Positions 5,458 to 20,890 of a stretch of DNA of 64,000 nucleotides are shown here, in pieces. Source of the stretch: Lachnospiraceae bacterium (lineage in GTDB: Bacteria; Bacillota; Clostridia; Lachnospirales; Lachnospiraceae); the NCBI GenBank assembly GCA_015057615.1, contig SVEA01000031.1, positions 11,432-75,431 of the forward strand, read 5' to 3'. The notes beneath the pieces were generated by a model. It saw only the letters and a list, made by a program, of their open reading frames with translations. It was not told the DNA's origin and searched no databases. Positions within the stretch are counted from its first letter, which is position 1. Each line of letters starts with the position of its first letter. The translations under genes were made by a program, and so were the position numbers.

Positions 5458-6318
5458 ATGCAGATAGGAATTCGATTACACGATACCAAGCCGGTATCAT
5501 TGGAAAACAGGTTACAGATTGTGAAAGAGCAGGGATTTACCTGTGCGCATGTGGCTTTATCGAAGGTGATTAAAGAATTTCCGGTAGATAGCGGTGCATT
5601 GACACCGGGACTTGCCATGTATTTGAAAAAATTATTTCATGATAAGGGAGTGGACTTAGCTGTACTTGGGTGCTACTTAAACCTGGCGCATCCGGATCCT
5701 GCTCAGCTTGATAAAATTAGGAAGACCTATCTTGCGCATATCCGTTTTGCATCAATTCTAGGCTGCGGGGTGGTCGGAACGGAGACGGGAGCCCCGAATG
5801 CGGAATATAAATTTGAACCTGCCTGCCGAAGCGAGGAAGCATTGAGATTATTTATTGAAAATCTACACCCGGTGGTTGCCTATGCGCAAACCATGGGGGT
5901 TATCCTGGCGATAGAACCGGTGTGTAACCATATCGTTTATGATGCACGAAGAGCGAAGCAGGTACTTGAGGAAATCGCATCCCCCAATCTACAGATTATC
6001 CTGGATCCGGTAAATTTACTTGGATTGCATAATTATAAGGATCGGGCGGAAGTGATAGAAGAAGCCATTGACCTTCTGGGAGATGATGTGGCAGTAATTC
6101 ATATGAAGGATTTTATCATTCGGGATAATTCCCTGGTCTCGGTTGCTGCGGGATCCGGTGAATTGGATTATAAACCGATCATTGATTTTATCCATGAAAG
6201 AAAGCCCTTCATCCATTGTACTCTGGAGGATACCACTCCGGAAAATGCAGTAACGGCAAGAGAATATATCGAAAATATGTATCGAAATGTTACTATGCAC
6301 AGCCATTTTGTGTCATAA
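5458..6318 (+). CDS. Sugar phosphate isomerase/epimerase (AP endonuclease 2 TIM barrel)
   Basis: ILAIEP, ILDPVN, IHMKD, TLE metal-binding motifs. Confidence 0.85.
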   Translation: MQIGIRLHDTKPVSLENRLQIVKEQGFTCAHVALSKVIKEFPVDSGALTPGLAMYLKKLFHDKGVDLAVLGCYLNLAHPDPAQLDKIRKTYLAHIRFASILGCGVVGTETGAPNAEYKFEPACRSEEALRLFIENLHPVVAYAQTMGVILAIEPVCNHIVYDARRAKQVLEEIASPNLQIILDPVNLLGLHNYKDRAEVIEEAIDLLGDDVAVIHMKDFIIRDNSLVSVAAGSGELDYKPIIDFIHERKPFIHCTLEDTTPENAVTAREYIENMYRNVTMHSHFVS

Positions 6319-6667
6319 ACAACGTTCCAGCCCCAAATACTCTTTAACCCTTAACTATATTTATCATATCTTCAAATGCTAAAACTCCTTGAGGTTCCTT
6401 GAAAGATTAGTGTTTTTTAGCATTTTTCTGTTGTGTCTGTAATCGTTATGTGACATACTATACGCATGATATGAGGTGGTTTTTGTGGGAATTATTTATC
6501 AAAAAGACAATAAGTCCGACCAATACTCAAGCTGAAGGGGAATATCAAATGCCAAAAACAATGAAGGAAATGTGTTCCAAGATTCTTCGCCTATGGAGGA
6601 AAATTCTCTTTTCACTTTTATCACACAGCAGTATAAAATATAAGAATTAAATATACAGGAGGTTAAA

Positions 6668-7201
6668 ATGCAACAATATCAATTCGAAAAAATCTACTCT
6701 CTTATGGGACGAGAATTTGGAAAAATAAAATCTGGACAAGAAGAGGCTCATGCACTGATGTTAATGCCTATAGAAAGCAATGCACTTAGAATTCATCGTA
6801 TGTATCCTACCTCTAATAGCAGAAGACTTCGAGAAGCTATTGCCTTAGCTCTTTTCGACATTAAAGAACGATATTCCGGCGATAAGATTAATCTTGATTC
6901 CTTTCGAGATGATGATAACGCTCGGCTCGAAGAGGCAGTGCTTATGGCTTTTGATCCATTTACTAACGAAGAAGTGAAAGAAATAGTTTCGAGTCAAAGC
7001 ACTCTGGATATTACGAATAAAACCATGCTTCATGATTATTATGCAGAACCCATCCGTTGTCTCTTACGGATAAAAGATTCCATTGACACCTGGGAGAAGC
7101 AAATGGGTTCCAACGGATACTTTGATTACATTGAACAATTCATGGGAGCCGAGATTAAAGGTAATGAAATGAAGTTTTCCATCTTAGCATCAGTGCAATA
7201 A
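6668..7201 (+). CDS. Hypothetical protein (177 aa)
   Basis: Clean ORF with RBS AGGAGG, followed by a terminator; no recognisable motif. Confidence 0.7.
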   Translation: MQQYQFEKIYSLMGREFGKIKSGQEEAHALMLMPIESNALRIHRMYPTSNSRRLREAIALALFDIKERYSGDKINLDSFRDDDNARLEEAVLMAFDPFTNEEVKEIVSSQSTLDITNKTMLHDYYAEPIRCLLRIKDSIDTWEKQMGSNGYFDYIEQFMGAEIKGNEMKFSILASVQ

Positions 7202-14767: not shown

Positions 14768-17230
14768 TCATGTGGTTTCCTGTATGATATCAACGAGTGC
14801 TGGGGGATGGAGCGGAGCACTGAAGATAAAGCCTTGAATCATATCACATTTTTGCATCTTAAGAAGCAAAAGCTGGTTTCCGTCCTCGACGCCCTCTGCA
14901 ACTACCTGGATATTTAGATTGTGCGCCAGGTTGATGATGGTTTCTGCAATATGGGAATCCTTATCGTTAAAGCAAATGTTATCAATAAAGGATTTATCGA
15001 TCTTTAGCGTGTTGATTGGTAGCTTTGTTAAATAGTTCAAAGAGGAATACCCGGTGCCGAAATCGTCCAGGGAGATCTTTACTCCCAGGTGTTGAAGTGC
15101 GGTCAATAATTCCATCGCATCGGTAATCGAAGATACCAGAGTGGTTTCGGTTATTTCCAGCTCCAGATACTGCGGCGGAAGTCCAGTCTCTGCGAGGATA
15201 TCGGAGAGTACCGTTACAAAATTCGGCTGGTTTAATTGGACGGAGGATATATTGACCGATAGGGTACAGGGACCGATTCCCTGGTCAAGTAAGCCCTTGT
15301 TAAAGCTGCATGCCTCCCATAGCAGCCAACCGCTTAGCTCGATGATTAATCCCGTTTCTTCGGCAATCGGTATAAATTCGGAGGGAGACAGGCTGCCAAG
15401 ACGCTCGCTTTTAATTCTCATCAAAGCCTCATAGCCGATGACTTCGTTCTTTTGTAGATTTAGTAAGGGCTGATACTGGATATAGATTTCGTTATTATCA
15501 ATTGCATTACGCAGTATATCAATAATTAAGGTATTTCGATTCAGCTCCTCCTCCATTTTCGAATTGAAAAGAGTATATTTGTTCTTCCCGGTGTCCTTGG
15601 ATTTGTACATGGCGATATCGGCATTTTTAATCAAGGTGTTGGAAGTGATACCATTGTCCGGATAGATGGCGATTCCAATGCTCATTGAGACATAGACGAT
15701 TTCACCGTTAAGGGCAAGGGGATTGGAGAAAAAATTAATAATCTGGGAAGCGAAAGCCTCCGCCTTTTCCCTGGACATGACATTTTCGATAAAGATCAGA
15801 AACTCATCTCCACCGGCTCTTGCAAGCATTCCCCGGTCACCTAGGAAAGAGGACAGCTTTTGCGAGGTCATAACAAGCAAAGCATCGCCGTATTCATGTC
15901 CCATGGTATCGTTTACCGTCTTAAAGTTATCCAGGTCAACAAAATAAACAGCATGGTTCTGCCGGCTAAGTGTATCAGAAGTAAGGATGGCATTCACATA
16001 ATCCAAGAAGGCAAGCTTATTCGGTAAGCCAGTCAGGATATCGTGGTAAGCCAGAAATTCGATATGATCATAATTGGAACGAAGCTGTTCCTCATTGGAT
16101 AACAATTCCTCATGCATCGAGGAGAGATCCTCATAATTTGTTCGGATGATATGCAGCATTTTGTTAAAATTCTTCGATAATTCTCCCAGCTCATTCTTGC
16201 TTTTTATATTTGATTGAACCGTCAGGTTACCGTCTGCGGCTATCCGCATGGCATCCCGCAGCTCGATAATCGGTTCCGTTAATCTCTTAGCAAGAAAATT
16301 GGCGATAAAGATAAACAATATCAAAAGTATGGTACAGATAAGAAAAAGCAGACCCAGCATGATTTCGGTAATGGAGCGAATCTCGGGCAGGTCCTGTTTG
16401 ACCAGTAAAACCCAGTTAAGCTGTGGGATAATGCTGTAACCATACGCCTGATCGATACCATCGAGAGTATGCTCAAAGTAACCGTTTGCCTTCATCAGGC
16501 GCTTCCTATAATTATTTACCAGGCCGGATAACATTTCCGAAGAAAGGCTTGTCCCGATTAAGGAAGTGTCCCGGTGATAGAGGATGGTTCCGTTCTCATC
16601 GAGTAATATGCCAAAGCCGGTATTCCCAATGGATATGGTACCAATGAAATCCTCAAAATAGGAGATGTTAAGAGTGCTGACAATGTAACCAATGTTTTTT
16701 TGCTCCGTTAGGCTGTAGATTGGTGTACCGATATCAAAGGTATAGGCGGTTGTATCGTCCTCTGCGGAAGAGGTTACGCCGCCGACACCGATGGCGTCTT
16801 CTCCGGTGGTGATCATATAGAGCAGGGTAAGATTATCGTCTGCCTTATTGCCGATAAGAGAGTAATCGGTACAGGCAATCAATTCTTTACGGGAATTGTA
16901 TACGGAGATCCTTTGACAGGAAGGATAACGTTTCTTTCGATCCTGCAGTAACAGATATACGGGGTTGGGTGAAATGGTATCCTGATTCGTGCTTTGCTTT
17001 GCCAGCTGCAAAATATCATCTTGCAGCGCCAATAAAGAAACCTCGGTTATCTGGGTTTCCAGCATTGCTTCCAAGCCGGCTTTATTCGTTTCAGCAATTT
17101 TTTGCAGGTTCTGTGTTTGTATGGTGATTAACCGCTTGTTCAGCAGACCGTGAACAAGTAAGGAAATGAAGATAAGCGGAATCATCGATGAAAGTATCAA
17201 TAGAATTCTTAAAGATCTCTTTATAGACAT
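14768..17230 (-). CDS. Membrane sensor diguanylate cyclase/phosphodiesterase (Cache-HAMP-GGDEF-EAL)
   Basis: Two TM segments flanking a Cache-like domain, HAMP, GGDEF (ARAGGDEF), YEALMR, DDFGTGYSSL; likely start MSIKRSL. Confidence 0.92.
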   Translation of the reverse strand: MSIKRSLRILLILSSMIPLIFISLLVHGLLNKRLITIQTQNLQKIAETNKAGLEAMLETQITEVSLLALQDDILQLAKQSTNQDTISPNPVYLLLQDRKKRYPSCQRISVYNSRKELIACTDYSLIGNKADDNLTLLYMITTGEDAIGVGGVTSSAEDDTTAYTFDIGTPIYSLTEQKNIGYIVSTLNISYFEDFIGTISIGNTGFGILLDENGTILYHRDTSLIGTSLSSEMLSGLVNNYRKRLMKANGYFEHTLDGIDQAYGYSIIPQLNWVLLVKQDLPEIRSITEIMLGLLFLICTILLILFIFIANFLAKRLTEPIIELRDAMRIAADGNLTVQSNIKSKNELGELSKNFNKMLHIIRTNYEDLSSMHEELLSNEEQLRSNYDHIEFLAYHDILTGLPNKLAFLDYVNAILTSDTLSRQNHAVYFVDLDNFKTVNDTMGHEYGDALLVMTSQKLSSFLGDRGMLARAGGDEFLIFIENVMSREKAEAFASQIINFFSNPLALNGEIVYVSMSIGIAIYPDNGITSNTLIKNADIAMYKSKDTGKNKYTLFNSKMEEELNRNTLIIDILRNAIDNNEIYIQYQPLLNLQKNEVIGYEALMRIKSERLGSLSPSEFIPIAEETGLIIELSGWLLWEACSFNKGLLDQGIGPCTLSVNISSVQLNQPNFVTVLSDILAETGLPPQYLELEITETTLVSSITDAMELLTALQHLGVKISLDDFGTGYSSLNYLTKLPINTLKIDKSFIDNICFNDKDSHIAETIINLAHNLNIQVVAEGVEDGNQLLLLKMQKCDMIQGFIFSAPLHPPALVDIIQETT

Positions 17231-17480
17231 AAGACTACCCCTCCCCCGTTTATAGTCATACATTTACTTTATTCTACCAATTATACCTAAATATTTCAAT
17301 CTATTTTAAAATTTATCCTCATGAAAAACACGATTAAAACGAGGTGGATAAGAAATAGAAGTGCTAATAAGATAAGGCATTTATCACATGAATATCCCAG
17401 ACAAAAGTTTACCTAGCTTATGTTGTGTGGTTATCATAATTGGTTACAAAAGTATGTTATTTATATAATCGGAATGGGGA

Positions 17481-17510
17481 TTGATCGACAAGGATCATTT
17501 GTGCTATAAT
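17481..17510 (+). promoter_or_regulatory. Extended -10 promoter of the three-gene island
   Basis: TTGATC-18-TATAAT with TGc immediately upstream of -10. Confidence 0.65.
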
Positions 17511-17548
17511 AAATTGTATAAGTATGTAATAGAATGGGAGGGAATTTA

Positions 17549-18403
17549 GTGGAAACAAATAATTTGGTTTTAAATAGATTCTTTACCCAAAATGTTTTTC
17601 AAGAGCTTATTAATAACAATGAAAATACTACATATGGGACAATAGTTCGACGATATGCCTCGGATGCTAATGGAAAAAATAATGGTGAAATTATTAGTAA
17701 AATATATAACTTTATGTCAAAGTCTTACCGTAATGAGTATTTTTTTCAAAATACCCTACTTAATAAGCTGCTTTTGGGTAGACATAGTGTTAATACAACA
17801 ACCGCATTAACGCAGATACCAATAGGAAAATCGAAGGCTGATTTTATTCTTATTAATGGAAAAGCGGTTGTATATGAAATTAAATCGGAACTCGACAGCT
17901 TTGAAAGGCTTAATACACAGCTTAGAGATTACTATAAAGCGTTTAGTCATGTATGTGTGGTAACATCTGAAAGTAATTTTGATAAGTTATTTAATATTTT
18001 GTATGGTACGCCTGTGGGTATTTGCGTATTAACTAAACGCGATACAATAAGCAAATCATTAAAAAAGGATATGATTGAAGATAATTCAAGGTTAGATTAT
18101 CTATCTATCTTTAAAGTTTTGCATAAAAGTGAGTATGAAAGCATTATCAAACAATACTTCGGGAAATTACCGATAACATCACAAGTGTTTTATTATGACG
18201 AATGCTTTTCTATGTTTTCGCAAATACCAATTTGGGAAGCCTATGCGATGTTTATAGAGCAATTAAAAAAGAGAAACCATATTGTACGAAGTAAAATTGA
18301 AAAAGTTCCTTATGAGTTAAAATCTCTAATATACTTTTCTAGTCCTTCATCACAAGATCTTATTAACTTAGATAACTTTTTAAAAAACAAATTTAGGGGG
18401 TAG
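17549..18403 (+). CDS. sce7726-family protein, PD-(D/E)XK nuclease-like
   Basis: YRNEYFFQN, IGKSKADFILINGKAVVYEIKSELDSFERL (D...ExK); GTG 17549 after GGGAGG (ATG 17534 alternative). Confidence 0.8.
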   Translation: METNNLVLNRFFTQNVFQELINNNENTTYGTIVRRYASDANGKNNGEIISKIYNFMSKSYRNEYFFQNTLLNKLLLGRHSVNTTTALTQIPIGKSKADFILINGKAVVYEIKSELDSFERLNTQLRDYYKAFSHVCVVTSESNFDKLFNILYGTPVGICVLTKRDTISKSLKKDMIEDNSRLDYLSIFKVLHKSEYESIIKQYFGKLPITSQVFYYDECFSMFSQIPIWEAYAMFIEQLKKRNHIVRSKIEKVPYELKSLIYFSSPSSQDLINLDNFLKNKFRG

Positions 18404-18407
18404 TGAT

Positions 18408-19358
18408 GTGTATCTTTCATGTTTTCGAGGTAGACAATACGAGCTATTAGCTTTACGCGAATTAGCAACAAATGATCTTTTAGGGGATTATGTGCTTCCT
18501 GTTATTGAGCCTGTGAAATTATCCCCAACATTGGTAAAAACTATTTCAGAGTATATTCGAGTTAAGCACCAAGTGGCTGTAATTAGGAATCCAATTGTTG
18601 GATCTTTTATGAAAGATTTGAAAGAAGCAAAGATCGAATCGAGAGAAGAAACGTATAAAAAGGAGTTTCAACAGCTTTATAATAATGATATTGTTGTGAA
18701 GTCTATTATTATGCAAAAGAATGCTCCCTCATTGTTAGCACATTGGGGTAAAAATGGCATTCCAAAACAAGATTTGTTGGTAATCAATACAGAACGTGAT
18801 TTTCTTGACTTATTCGAACAAGAATTTGTGGGCATTAATCCTTGTTACGCTCTTATTCCTGAGGAAAGAACATTTCAACGCAGGATTAAGCACAACTGTG
18901 TTATTTTAGAGGATAGATTTAAAAAGCAAAGCCGAAATGTGGATTATCAGGATATAGAGGATGAGTTTTTTTCTGAGGATCATTTATATTATAAAGATTA
19001 TGGACTTAAAGGCTTTGCAGATTATTCTGTTATTGGAAAAAACTATCAGGAAACTGGTTTTGCACCTTATGCAGTAGTTATTCACATTGTTTACTTTGCA
19101 GCGGACAAAACCCTTAGAATAAAGCATTTTGTATCAGACTCAAACGAGGATATTTATAATCCTGCAAAAAAATTTTATCAAGCAGTATCGAAATTGAATA
19201 AATGGTATCGCGCTAATCCTTTTACACCTACGCTTGGTTTGGCAACCTTATTAGAACATTATGAGAATAAAACATATCCTGGACTTGGAAGTATAAAAAA
19301 ACTTTCAATTATGCACCATTTGGAGCTTATGGGAAAATATCTTAGCGAGGGAAAGTAG
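18408..19358 (+). CDS. sce7725-family (Beta-family-like) protein
   Basis: N-terminal FRGRQYELLALREL, LPVIEP, GFADYS, GFAPYAVVIH, HFVSDSN, YPGLGSIKKLSIMHHLEL; 4 bp after upstream stop. Confidence 0.8.
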   Translation: MYLSCFRGRQYELLALRELATNDLLGDYVLPVIEPVKLSPTLVKTISEYIRVKHQVAVIRNPIVGSFMKDLKEAKIESREETYKKEFQQLYNNDIVVKSIIMQKNAPSLLAHWGKNGIPKQDLLVINTERDFLDLFEQEFVGINPCYALIPEERTFQRRIKHNCVILEDRFKKQSRNVDYQDIEDEFFSEDHLYYKDYGLKGFADYSVIGKNYQETGFAPYAVVIHIVYFAADKTLRIKHFVSDSNEDIYNPAKKFYQAVSKLNKWYRANPFTPTLGLATLLEHYENKTYPGLGSIKKLSIMHHLELMGKYLSEGK

Positions 19359-19359
19359 T

Positions 19360-20445
19360 ATGAACTGTTGTGTAAGATGCTTTAATGATGCCGAAATTAT
19401 TGACATTATTAAAAACAAAAAAACTAAAGGGAATTGCGATTTTTGCGGAAGTAAAAATGTGTATGTATATCATCTTGATAGTGATTCTGTATTATCCGAT
19501 ATGTTTGGCGAATTGTTGGACATATATACTGCTGTATCTGGTCTTCCCAATACTTTTCCAAAAGAAAATATGGATTTACTAAAAAATATTTTTTATAGCA
19601 AATGGTCGATTTTCAACTTAGAACCAGATTGCATTTATCGTTTGATTACTTCCATTTGCCACGAAAAATATTCTGATCAACCTGAATTATTTGATAATCC
19701 TGTAGGAATATTAGAAAGTCAAAACAAAGATTATCTAGATGAGTTTTCTGTTATTAGAGGTTACCAATGGGAGGACTTTACTGAGGCTATAAAGTGTGTA
19801 AACAGATTTCACACGGATTATATCAATAAGAATGTGTTGGATTTGTTTATCCGCTGTGTTCAAAAGCCTTATAAAGCAGGTAAAACCTTTTATAGGGCGC
19901 GTATATGCACAGATGAAAGAGGTTTCCCTAAAACTGAAATGGGGGCGCCACCCATGCAACTTGCATCAGCGGGGCGTGTAAATCCTATTGGGATAAGTGT
20001 ATTGTATTTAGCTGATTCAATCCCAACAACGCTGCATGAAATACGCGCTGGTGTTTTCGATTATATTACTGTTGGCAGCTTTAAGCTGAAAAAGAATATT
20101 GAAATAATTGATTTTACCAATTTAAACAGAATAAGTCCATTCATCGCAAATAATGTTATGGGCATCCCCTATGTCCAACATGCAATTAATATTGAACATT
20201 TAAAATTAATTAGCCAAGAGATTGCCAAACCATTAAGACGCCATGATAGCACATTAGATTACTTACCGACACAGTATATTAGTGACTATATAAAAAGCGA
20301 AGATTATGATGGTGTTGAATATATTAGTACAATGTGCAAAGATGGTTATAATCTGGCTGTTTTTGATGAAAGTGTTTTTAAATGTACTAAAACAAAGGTG
20401 TATGATATAAAATCTTTATCTTATACATATGATTTGATAAATTAA
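19360..20445 (+). CDS. RES-domain protein (putative NAD+ phosphorylase/ART-fold toxin) with N-terminal Zn-ribbon
   Basis: CCVRC...CDFC; FYRAR, AGRVNPIGISVLYLAD, HEIR, YLPTQYISDY, YDGVEYIS, GYNLAVF; 1 bp after upstream stop. Confidence 0.85.
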   Translation: MNCCVRCFNDAEIIDIIKNKKTKGNCDFCGSKNVYVYHLDSDSVLSDMFGELLDIYTAVSGLPNTFPKENMDLLKNIFYSKWSIFNLEPDCIYRLITSICHEKYSDQPELFDNPVGILESQNKDYLDEFSVIRGYQWEDFTEAIKCVNRFHTDYINKNVLDLFIRCVQKPYKAGKTFYRARICTDERGFPKTEMGAPPMQLASAGRVNPIGISVLYLADSIPTTLHEIRAGVFDYITVGSFKLKKNIEIIDFTNLNRISPFIANNVMGIPYVQHAINIEHLKLISQEIAKPLRRHDSTLDYLPTQYISDYIKSEDYDGVEYISTMCKDGYNLAVFDESVFKCTKTKVYDIKSLSYTYDLIN

Positions 20446-20460
20446 GATACATTATCGCGT

Positions 20461-20484
20461 GGCAGGAGAAATCCTGCCGTTTTT
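20461..20484 (+). terminator. Intrinsic terminator of island operon
   Basis: GGCAGGA-GAAA-TCCTGCC followed by GTTTTT. Confidence 0.8.
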
Positions 20485-20890
20485 AGTAGGGACTTTTTAA
20501 AAAAGTTATATCGGTGAATTACAATTGCTTCTAGTACTTACATAGAAAAATATTTTAATATATAAAACATTCCAATTATAAGCAAATAGCAAAAAAATTC
20601 CGAAGGCCAGACTTTCCTAAGCATTAATCCATTTCATGGATTTAATTCTTTAACTTCCAGCTATTGATTTGACATAAAAACTCTTTCTGTTTCGGATGGT
20701 AAAATTTGTTTTATAGAAATAGTAATATTTATTTTCCAATTTACAATGAATAGCTAAGAAAATATATTTTAGTTGAAAAAGTAGGATATTAAGGGTATAC
20801 TTGTAATGGTATATATTTGTGTATGTAGACATTTATATACAGAGACTTTTGTATATAGAAGACATTTGTAATGGTAGATTCTTGGCATGA

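Follow-up and report, generated by a model that had tools for sequence, protein, structure and literature searches.

In a 64,000-nt stretch of a Lachnospiraceae bacterium genome (contig SVEA01000031.1, positions 11,432-75,431 of the forward strand; this whole stretch is the window, and coordinates below are window positions) we found a low-GC islet that carries three tightly coupled genes, g1, g2 and g3. They encode, in this order, a protein of the sce7726 family related to cII of satellite phage P4, a protein of the sce7725 family that appears to be a remote homologue of P4 Beta, and a RES-domain protein predicted to resemble the anti-phage aRES proteins. We conclude that the three genes probably form a self-contained, horizontally acquired abortive-infection (anti-phage) operon, in which a RES effector is combined with a cII-like/Beta-like core. 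A preliminary description of this DNA, made from the letters alone, had proposed a new defence system. The combination is indeed new, namely a cII/Beta-type core joined to an aRES-type effector, but the kind of system is not, as each of the modules (gop-beta-cII and aRES) was already known separately.

A three-gene operon on an inserted islet

The three co-directional open reading frames (ORFs) lie on the plus strand of the window and are separated by gaps of 4 bp (g1/g2) and 1 bp (g2/g3) (Table 1), and the ribosome-binding sites of the downstream genes sit inside the preceding genes. Thus, g2 starts with a GTG preceded by AGGGGG within the 3' end of g1, and the ATG start of g3 lies immediately 3' of GAGGGAAAG. 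For g1, the GTG is the likelier start, because GGGAGGG is located 7 nt upstream of it; the ORF read from the alternative start at 17534 to 18403 would encode 289 aa. The tight coupling, the coordinates and the GTG start of g1 given in the preliminary description were all borne out. The best plus-strand promoter-like site upstream of g1 agrees with the consensus at 10 of 12 positions, a terminator-like hairpin begins 14 nt past the g3 stop, and no internal promoter or terminator stood out within the three-gene operon. Given one promoter-like site, one terminator, gaps of only 4 bp and 1 bp, and ribosome-binding sites placed in preceding genes, g1-g2-g3 is predicted to be a single transcription unit. 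We found neither Rfam families nor tRNA genes in the islet, and the ORF list and the Pfam and NCBIfam matches contained no Xre/helix-turn-helix or DUF2384 gene in or beside it, in agreement with the earlier remark that an Xre/MbcA antitoxin is absent.

The islet measures 3.3-3.5 kb and is flanked on the left by a GGDEF/EAL gene (14768-17263, minus strand) and on the right by tgt. Its GC fraction is low, 0.30-0.34 over 17-21 kb versus 0.40-0.47 either side. When the flanks were compared with other genomes of the same genus, 39 out of 40 matched window DNA, and the triad DNA between the GGDEF/EAL gene and tgt was absent in all 39. In the congeners checked closely (for example, locus L110 of genome G028) the flanks are about 190 bp apart on a single contig, compared with about 3.5 kb here. 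Two copies of an imperfect 17-nt direct repeat with the core CCAATTATA bracket the islet, 3295 nt apart, and the empty site of G028 carries a single copy, ACCAATTAT. The repeat pair is suggestive of the footprint of a site-specific insertion; chance in AT-rich DNA might also account for it. No recombinase gene is present within the islet. We regard the triad islet as horizontally acquired.

Within the genus, the sce7725 gene was found in 1 of 36 genomes, G026, where it lies on another contig than the GGDEF/EAL-tgt locus of that genome. In this second triad (L007, G026:C45 7180-10114) the RES gene is broken in two, with NTD1 on a fragment of 205 aa and RES on another of 100 aa.

Table 1. Features of the islet and its operon, in window positions.
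Feature	Position	Strand	Remarks
Low-GC inserted islet	17264-20755		Between GGDEF/EAL gene and conserved tgt upstream region
Left copy of imperfect 17-nt direct repeat (CCAATTATAcctAAATA)	17277-17293	+	Islet border; repeat search
Promoter-like site, TTGATC / 18-nt spacer / TATAAT, extended -10 TG	17481-17510	+	Consensus match only
g1, sce7726-family / P4 cII-like predicted PD-(D/E)xK protein	17549-18403	+	GTG start; alternative ATG start 17534
g2, sce7725-family, TIM-barrel-like putative remote homologue of P4 Beta	18408-19358	+	316 aa
g3, Zn-ribbon + HEPN/RES-NTD1 + RES; predicted aRES-like NAD+ phosphorylase effector	19360-20445	+	361 aa
Intrinsic terminator-like hairpin + T run	20459-20490	+	9-bp stem, 5 G-C pairs, then TTTTT
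Right copy of imperfect 17-nt direct repeat (CCAATTATAagcAAATA)	20572-20588	+	Islet border; repeat search

Beyond the islet, a segment of ~50 nt (20762-20813) that lies upstream of tgt is 82-91% identical across many genomes of the genus, while the surrounding non-coding DNA is unalignable. It overlaps a promoter-like TTGAAA-17-TATACT, has no Rfam match and is probably a promoter or operator of tgt.

g1 is a cII-like protein with a nuclease fold

Both upstream genes exceeded the curated NCBIfam cut-offs for their families (those for sce7725 and sce7726 were taken from NF033831 and NF033832). The g1 product matched sce7726_fam with 187.4 bits (E 2.3e-55; cut-off 70). It also matched the PADLOC 'cll' model (1.3e-13) and, in BLASTP, P4 cII itself (25% identity over 153 aa, E 4e-9), which RefSeq annotates as a sce7726-family protein. 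The pair of sce7725 and sce7726, described as uncharacterised in the preliminary description, is hence not wholly so, because P4 cII belongs to the sce7726 family and gop-beta-cII has been validated.

The PD-(D/E)XK-type D...ExK motif that had been read in g1 proved to be strictly conserved: D98, E110 and K112 (numbered from the GTG start) are invariant in 25 homologues. In an AlphaFold2 model of high confidence (predicted local distance difference test score, pLDDT, 90.9) the protein has an alpha-beta-beta-beta-alpha-beta core (strands 85-92, 95-102 and 107-111, with helices flanking), with D on the second and ExK on the third strand of the PD-(D/E)xK core. Almost all top Foldseek matches in the PDB were PD-(D/E)xK proteins (XisH, Cas4-like ACE1, SfsA, McrC and NucS), at modest E values of 4e-3 to 0.3. 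The sequence and the model together place g1 in the P4 cII family and indicate a PD-(D/E)xK fold with an intact predicted nuclease motif.

g2, a probable remote homologue of P4 Beta

The preliminary description had labelled g2 'sce7725/Beta'. The first part of this label is secure, g2 matching sce7725_fam with 332.3 bits (E 3.8e-99; cut-off 60); the second holds as remote homology only. We, indeed, could not assign g2 to Beta directly: it matched neither Pfam Beta_protein (PF14350) nor the PADLOC beta and PD-Lambda-2_C models, and BLASTP found no similarity between g2 and P4 Beta. Only profile-profile comparison gave a signal. Aligned by hhalign, a 50-sequence sce7725 profile and a 29-sequence Beta-family profile matched over the first 100 columns in local mode (92% probability, E 6e-7) and over 304 columns in global mode (83%, E 1e-6). 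The global alignment pairs invariant residues of the two families (sce7725:Beta), Y2/P4 with Y10/P12, E12 with E20, D205 with D241 and H304 with H332. This points to g2 being a full-length, remote homologue of P4 Beta (PF14350).

In the AlphaFold2 model of g2 (pLDDT 82, predicted template modelling score 0.83) strands and helices alternate as in a TIM barrel. Foldseek returned weak TIM-barrel matches only from the PDB (E ≥ 0.02), too weak to name a specific enzyme family. The best BFVD match was an uncharacterised Gordonia phage protein (E 5e-6), which tblastn with P4 Beta did not reach. Many polar residues are invariant in the sce7725 family (D205, H226, S243 and H304), which suggests an enzyme or a ligand binder. 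Residues ~171-220 of g2 (18918-19067) are the most conserved stretch of the family (RN.DY..DEFFS.DHL.Y..G..GFSDYS..G..Y..GFAPYA), and the same segment is the one modelled least confidently by AlphaFold (pLDDT < 50). It may become ordered only on a partner or ligand.

g3 resembles aRES proteins

The product of g3 matched Pfam RES (PF08808) above the cut-off (4.3e-15). The preceding domain, HEPN_RES_NTD1 (PF18870), was recognised by hmmscan with E 0.0027 and 18.5 bits, below the cut-off of 27.4. Among 28 aligned members of the g3 family, RES was matched in all 28 and NTD1 in nine at E ≤ 0.01 (best 6e-5). At its N-terminus g3 carries a CxxC...CxxC zinc ribbon, which is degenerate in some relatives. 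Invariant in 28 homologues are R179, R181, G205-R206-N208, L215-Y216, E227, D300-Y301, Q305 and S323, and all the RES motifs quoted in the preliminary description (YRAR, GRVN..LY, HEIR and YIS) fall in invariant columns.

Sequence and profile searches with g3 reached no solved structure, RES toxins included. We found, however, full-length homologues of g3 (23-30% identity, 91-99% coverage) among stand-alone RES or 'HEPN-associated N-terminal domain' proteins on enterobacterial, Bacillus and Comamonas plasmids. Stand-alone, non-operonic NTD1+RES proteins of 300-600 aa have been described as aRES, with an HHsearch probability > 80% as the criterion for NTD1 (Osterman et al. 2026, Sorek-lab preprint, bioRxiv 10.64898/2026.01.28.702374). 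They protect E. coli by converting nicotinamide adenine dinucleotide (NAD+) to nicotinamide and ADP-ribose-1''-phosphate (ADPR-1P), which phages cannot recycle through the NARP1 pathway (bioRxiv 10.64898/2026.01.28.702374). By analogy, g3 is predicted to be an aRES-like, NAD+-depleting effector.

The triad is conserved, mobile and prone to lose RES

An alignment-based scan of species-representative genomes with sce7725 yielded at least 566 sce7725 loci; a scan of close relatives with g3 alone yielded one locus only. We examined the best 80 of the at least 566 loci, together with plasmid and same-order loci. A RES gene lies directly downstream of sce7725 in 82 of the 88 rows surveyed, which come from Bacillota, Spirochaetota, Proteobacteria and plasmids, and the sce7725 stop and RES start codons usually overlap or nearly abut, an arrangement recurring across phyla. 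Directly upstream of sce7725 there is a gene of sce7726 size in nearly every locus, the exceptions being an Enterococcus faecium plasmid and a locus with a frameshift (L046). The same order is kept on plasmids of Moraxella, Rhizobium, Shinella and Ralstonia and in distant sce7725 members (32-37% identity). Moreover, the identities of the three proteins to those of the window co-vary over 73 loci (r = 0.88-0.93, with related genomes being non-independent). The co-variation shows joint inheritance and is not meant as a formal statistic. The triad is patchily distributed: of 300 other Bacillota genomes sampled, 7 (~2%) had an sce7725 match exceeding the cut-off.

Decay of the triad is uneven. RES is broken in three cases (L007, L083 and L090), deleted in one (L043) and replaced by a macro-domain gene in another (L073), while sce7726 is frameshifted once (L046, an isolate genome) and sce7725 carries an in-frame stop once (L034, a metagenome-assembled genome, MAG), RES being intact in both of the latter. 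RES is, therefore, the gene of the triad most often lost, which fits a costly toxin.

A few loci depart from the usual composition. In L073, a Lachnospiraceae MAG, the gene in place of RES (5941-7005) encodes a 354-aa macro-domain protein similar to O-acetyl-ADP-ribose deacetylases (1e-61) and overlaps the sce7725 stop by 11 nt; macro domains dephosphorylated ADPR-1P in the aRES study (bioRxiv 10.64898/2026.01.28.702374). On the E. faecium plasmid p114-2 (L016, 4306-6513), and likewise in L115, sce7725 is located between an unrelated 229-aa protein (length as annotated), in which we detected no sce7726 similarity, and a 170-aa GNAT acetyltransferase. This may be an alternative set of partner and effector, restricted to one lineage. 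L104 (1943-3577) encodes a 544-aa protein (P0371) with the C-terminal half of sce7725 (profile 134-311) after a long unmatched N-terminal region; it adjoins a collagen-repeat protein, and neither RES nor sce7726 was called nearby. A 'Listeria phage' match to sce7725 (H2) was rejected as a case of phage carriage, because its record is an unverified contig whose genes are those of an Enterococcus plasmid.

The operon is often found beside defence or mobile genes. Matches among the 133 nearest neighbours from about 45 triad loci (most frequent families only, and without a matched control) included AbiLi, AriA, GajA, McrB-like, HEC-01A and PDC candidates, as well as five resolvases, three integrases and two relaxases. 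Other triad neighbours encode proteins of the AbiJ-NTD4 and T5orf172 types. On three metagenome contigs (L106-L108, 1492-5831) a distant triad (sce7725 32% identity) follows immediately 3' of Kiwa (KwaB, KwaA).

Two sister lineages of one gene pair

In E. coli, the gop-beta-cII locus of P4 gives protection from lambda and P1 (Rousset et al. 2022, PMC9122126). When Beta is missing, Gop is toxic (Ghisotti 1990, as cited in PMC9122126), and the toxicity of the system is triggered by the phage accessory gene orf184 (bioRxiv 10.1101/2023.04.06.535777). The P4 locus contains gop, which encodes a membrane-like protein of 133 aa, beta (PF14350) and, in convergent orientation, cII. In the sampled Bacillota, Beta was present in 7 of 300 genomes, and, as in P4, a convergent sce7726-family gene accompanied it at all six of the Beta loci examined. 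In a maximum-likelihood tree of sce7726, Beta-paired and sce7725-paired members fall into separate groups (96/93 support, with a caveat for long branches). Since the tree separates the pairs and the Beta loci carry a convergent sce7726, we interpret Beta/sce7726 and sce7725/sce7726 as sister lineages of one two-gene core rather than as a recent shuffle. The sce7725-paired clade mixes taxa of different phyla and families (Sphaerochaeta, for instance, falls among Bacillota), indicating horizontal transfer.

Proposed function and alternatives

In the abortive-infection operon that we propose, g3, once activated, would phosphorolyse NAD+ to nicotinamide and ADPR-1P, and, with NAD+ lost, the infected cell would cease to grow and the phage would be starved. 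g1 would probably act as a sensor that binds or cuts nucleic acid. Together with g2, a P4 Beta-like protein of TIM-barrel type, it would form an ancient, portable two-gene core for sensing and regulation. The sister core in P4 would control the small membrane toxin Gop; here, the RES effector would stand in place of Gop, and the core would most likely activate or license g3 on a phage cue.

We also consider, tentatively, a wider form of this scheme, in which the cII-like and Beta-like proteins make up a portable phage-sensing pair to which unrelated effectors can be connected: Gop in P4, a RES NADase here and possibly a GNAT or macro-domain protein in the rare variants. The Beta-like protein would then be an enzyme or a receptor for a small molecule or nucleic acid, not an antitoxin. 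If true, this would show a self-sufficient aRES effector placed under an external trigger and give a first handle on what P4 beta/cII sense.

Several points weigh against an abortive-infection operon of this composition. The islet of this genome has housekeeping genes on both sides and lies outside any defence island; proximity to defence and mobile genes, which the preliminary description had named as a check, was seen among the surveyed neighbours, not at the window locus, and the survey is supportive only, in view of its uncontrolled design. Some RES domains (ParT-type) are ADP-ribosyltransferases instead, and the two chemistries cannot be told apart by sequence alone. The homology of g2 to Beta is remote, with no direct match to a hidden Markov model and a local hhalign match limited to 100 columns. 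A PADLOC check, suggested earlier, returned g1 as 'cll', and PADLOC 2.0 models recognise neither g2 nor g3. The aRES proteins were described as stand-alone, which leaves the role of the partners unexplained; the cases of broken partners are single genomes (n = 1 each), possibly assembly errors; and our literature search found no paper treating the triad as a unit and no experiment on it.

How the partners would act on g3 is the point at which the nearest alternative parts from the proposed operon. The genes could be a tripartite toxin-antitoxin (TA) or addiction module that stabilises mobile DNA, in which a labile sce7725 antitoxin (with or without sce7726) blocks the active site of the RES toxin and any defence is incidental. 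The classical RES toxins belong to TA systems, P4 Gop is toxic when Beta is absent (as cited in PMC9122126), the triad is found on plasmids, its genes are tightly coupled, and segment ~171-220 of sce7725 is the most conserved and yet modelled with low confidence, as expected of a segment ordered by a partner. We nevertheless think such a module unlikely. Stand-alone aRES homologues are tolerated without a partner or antitoxin. PD-lambda-2C, a Beta-like protein, is needed for defence and not for neutralisation of its toxin (Vassallo et al. 2022, bioRxiv 10.1101/2022.05.12.491691), and so is not an antitoxin. L046, with its frameshifted sce7726, and L034, with a stop in sce7725, keep RES intact, a weak argument with n = 1 each. 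Because of these three observations we favour sensor or activator roles for g1 and g2, and the invariant polar residues of sce7725 (D205, H226, S243 and H304) likewise resemble those of an enzyme or ligand binder more than those of an antitoxin. A three-component defence or abortive-infection module with a RES effector, as envisaged in the preliminary description, is accordingly still the most likely function, but its proposal that the partners restrain RES is, for the same three reasons, doubtful.

It is also quite improbable that the islet holds two independent units that travel together, a stand-alone aRES-type protein and a cII/Beta-like pair with g1 as its own nuclease effector. The 1-bp gap or overlapping stop and start of sce7725 and RES recurs across phyla, RES follows sce7725 in 82 of the 88 rows, the three proteins co-diverge and no internal promoter or terminator stands out, although aRES proteins do function alone, some Bacillota pairs of Beta and sce7726 have no obvious third gene, the pair remains where RES was lost (L043 and L073), and the nuclease motif of g1 is intact. 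A role outside conflict, such as a housekeeping or stress module of NAD/ADP-ribose signalling or a DNA-repair accessory, would suit a site between a cyclic di-GMP signalling gene and tgt with no adjacent defence genes, but is very hard to reconcile with a site empty in 39 matching congeners, absence of the triad from most sampled Bacillota, the low GC of the islet, cross-phylum transfer in the sce7726 tree, plasmid carriage, mobile and defence neighbours, and repeated decay of RES.

The abortive-infection operon proposed here links a pair of the P4 beta/cII type with aRES, so far described only as stand-alone. To our knowledge, how P4 gop-beta-cII works and what proteins of the Beta and cII families do are still unknown more than 30 years after their description. 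The triad is common (at least 566 loci, ~2% of sampled Bacillota) and has a simple effector read-out (NAD+ and ADPR-1P), and is therefore tractable for finding out which cue a Beta/cII-type pair detects and by what means it governs an effector. The NAD+-depleting defences that yield ADPR-1P, which phage NARP1 does not recycle, would also gain a further member.

Comparison with known systems

With gop-beta-cII of P4 the operon shares three genes, a member of the cII/sce7726 family, a Beta-type gene genomically locked to sce7726, a toxic third component (predicted here) and a location on mobile DNA. The effectors, however, are unrelated, a 133-aa membrane-type Gop in P4 and a 361-aa cytosolic RES enzyme here: we detected neither similarity of g3 to Gop nor a PADLOC gop match, and no other small ORF of the islet fits Gop. 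The order differs as well, gop-beta with a convergent cII in P4 and co-directional cII-like, Beta-like and effector genes here, and g2 escapes the Beta models of Pfam and PADLOC.

PD-lambda-2 is likewise an abortive system of three genes, the third protein of which belongs to the Beta family; indeed, P4 Beta matches the PADLOC PD-Lambda-2_C model (8e-14), which g2 misses. It differs in having a HigB-like toxin and a HigA-peptidase antitoxin, and in having neither cII/sce7726 nor RES. By analogy, we see in PD-lambda-2 a precedent for Beta-type proteins serving as sensor or accessory modules for unrelated toxins.

The RES-Xre pairs (MbcT-MbcA, ParT-ParS and NatT-NatR) have in common with g3 the RES catalytic domain and its R/E/S signature, and MbcT and NatT are NAD+ phosphorylases. 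An Xre/MbcA-type antitoxin is, in contrast, absent here, and g3, in which a Zn-ribbon and NTD1 precede RES, has about twice their length and shows no sequence-level match to solved RES toxins.

The aRES proteins are closest to g3 itself, which appears to have the same HEPN/RES-NTD1 + RES architecture, and has a length (361 aa) within their 300-600 aa range, an intact RES signature and, as predicted, the same conversion of NAD+ to nicotinamide and ADPR-1P; the comparison covered the described architecture and the stand-alone plasmid homologues. For NTD1, g3 stays below the Pfam cut-off, and its identity to the stand-alone forms is 23-30%. Whereas aRES proteins stand alone, translational coupling ties the RES gene to a conserved pair of partners here and in at least 80 other loci.

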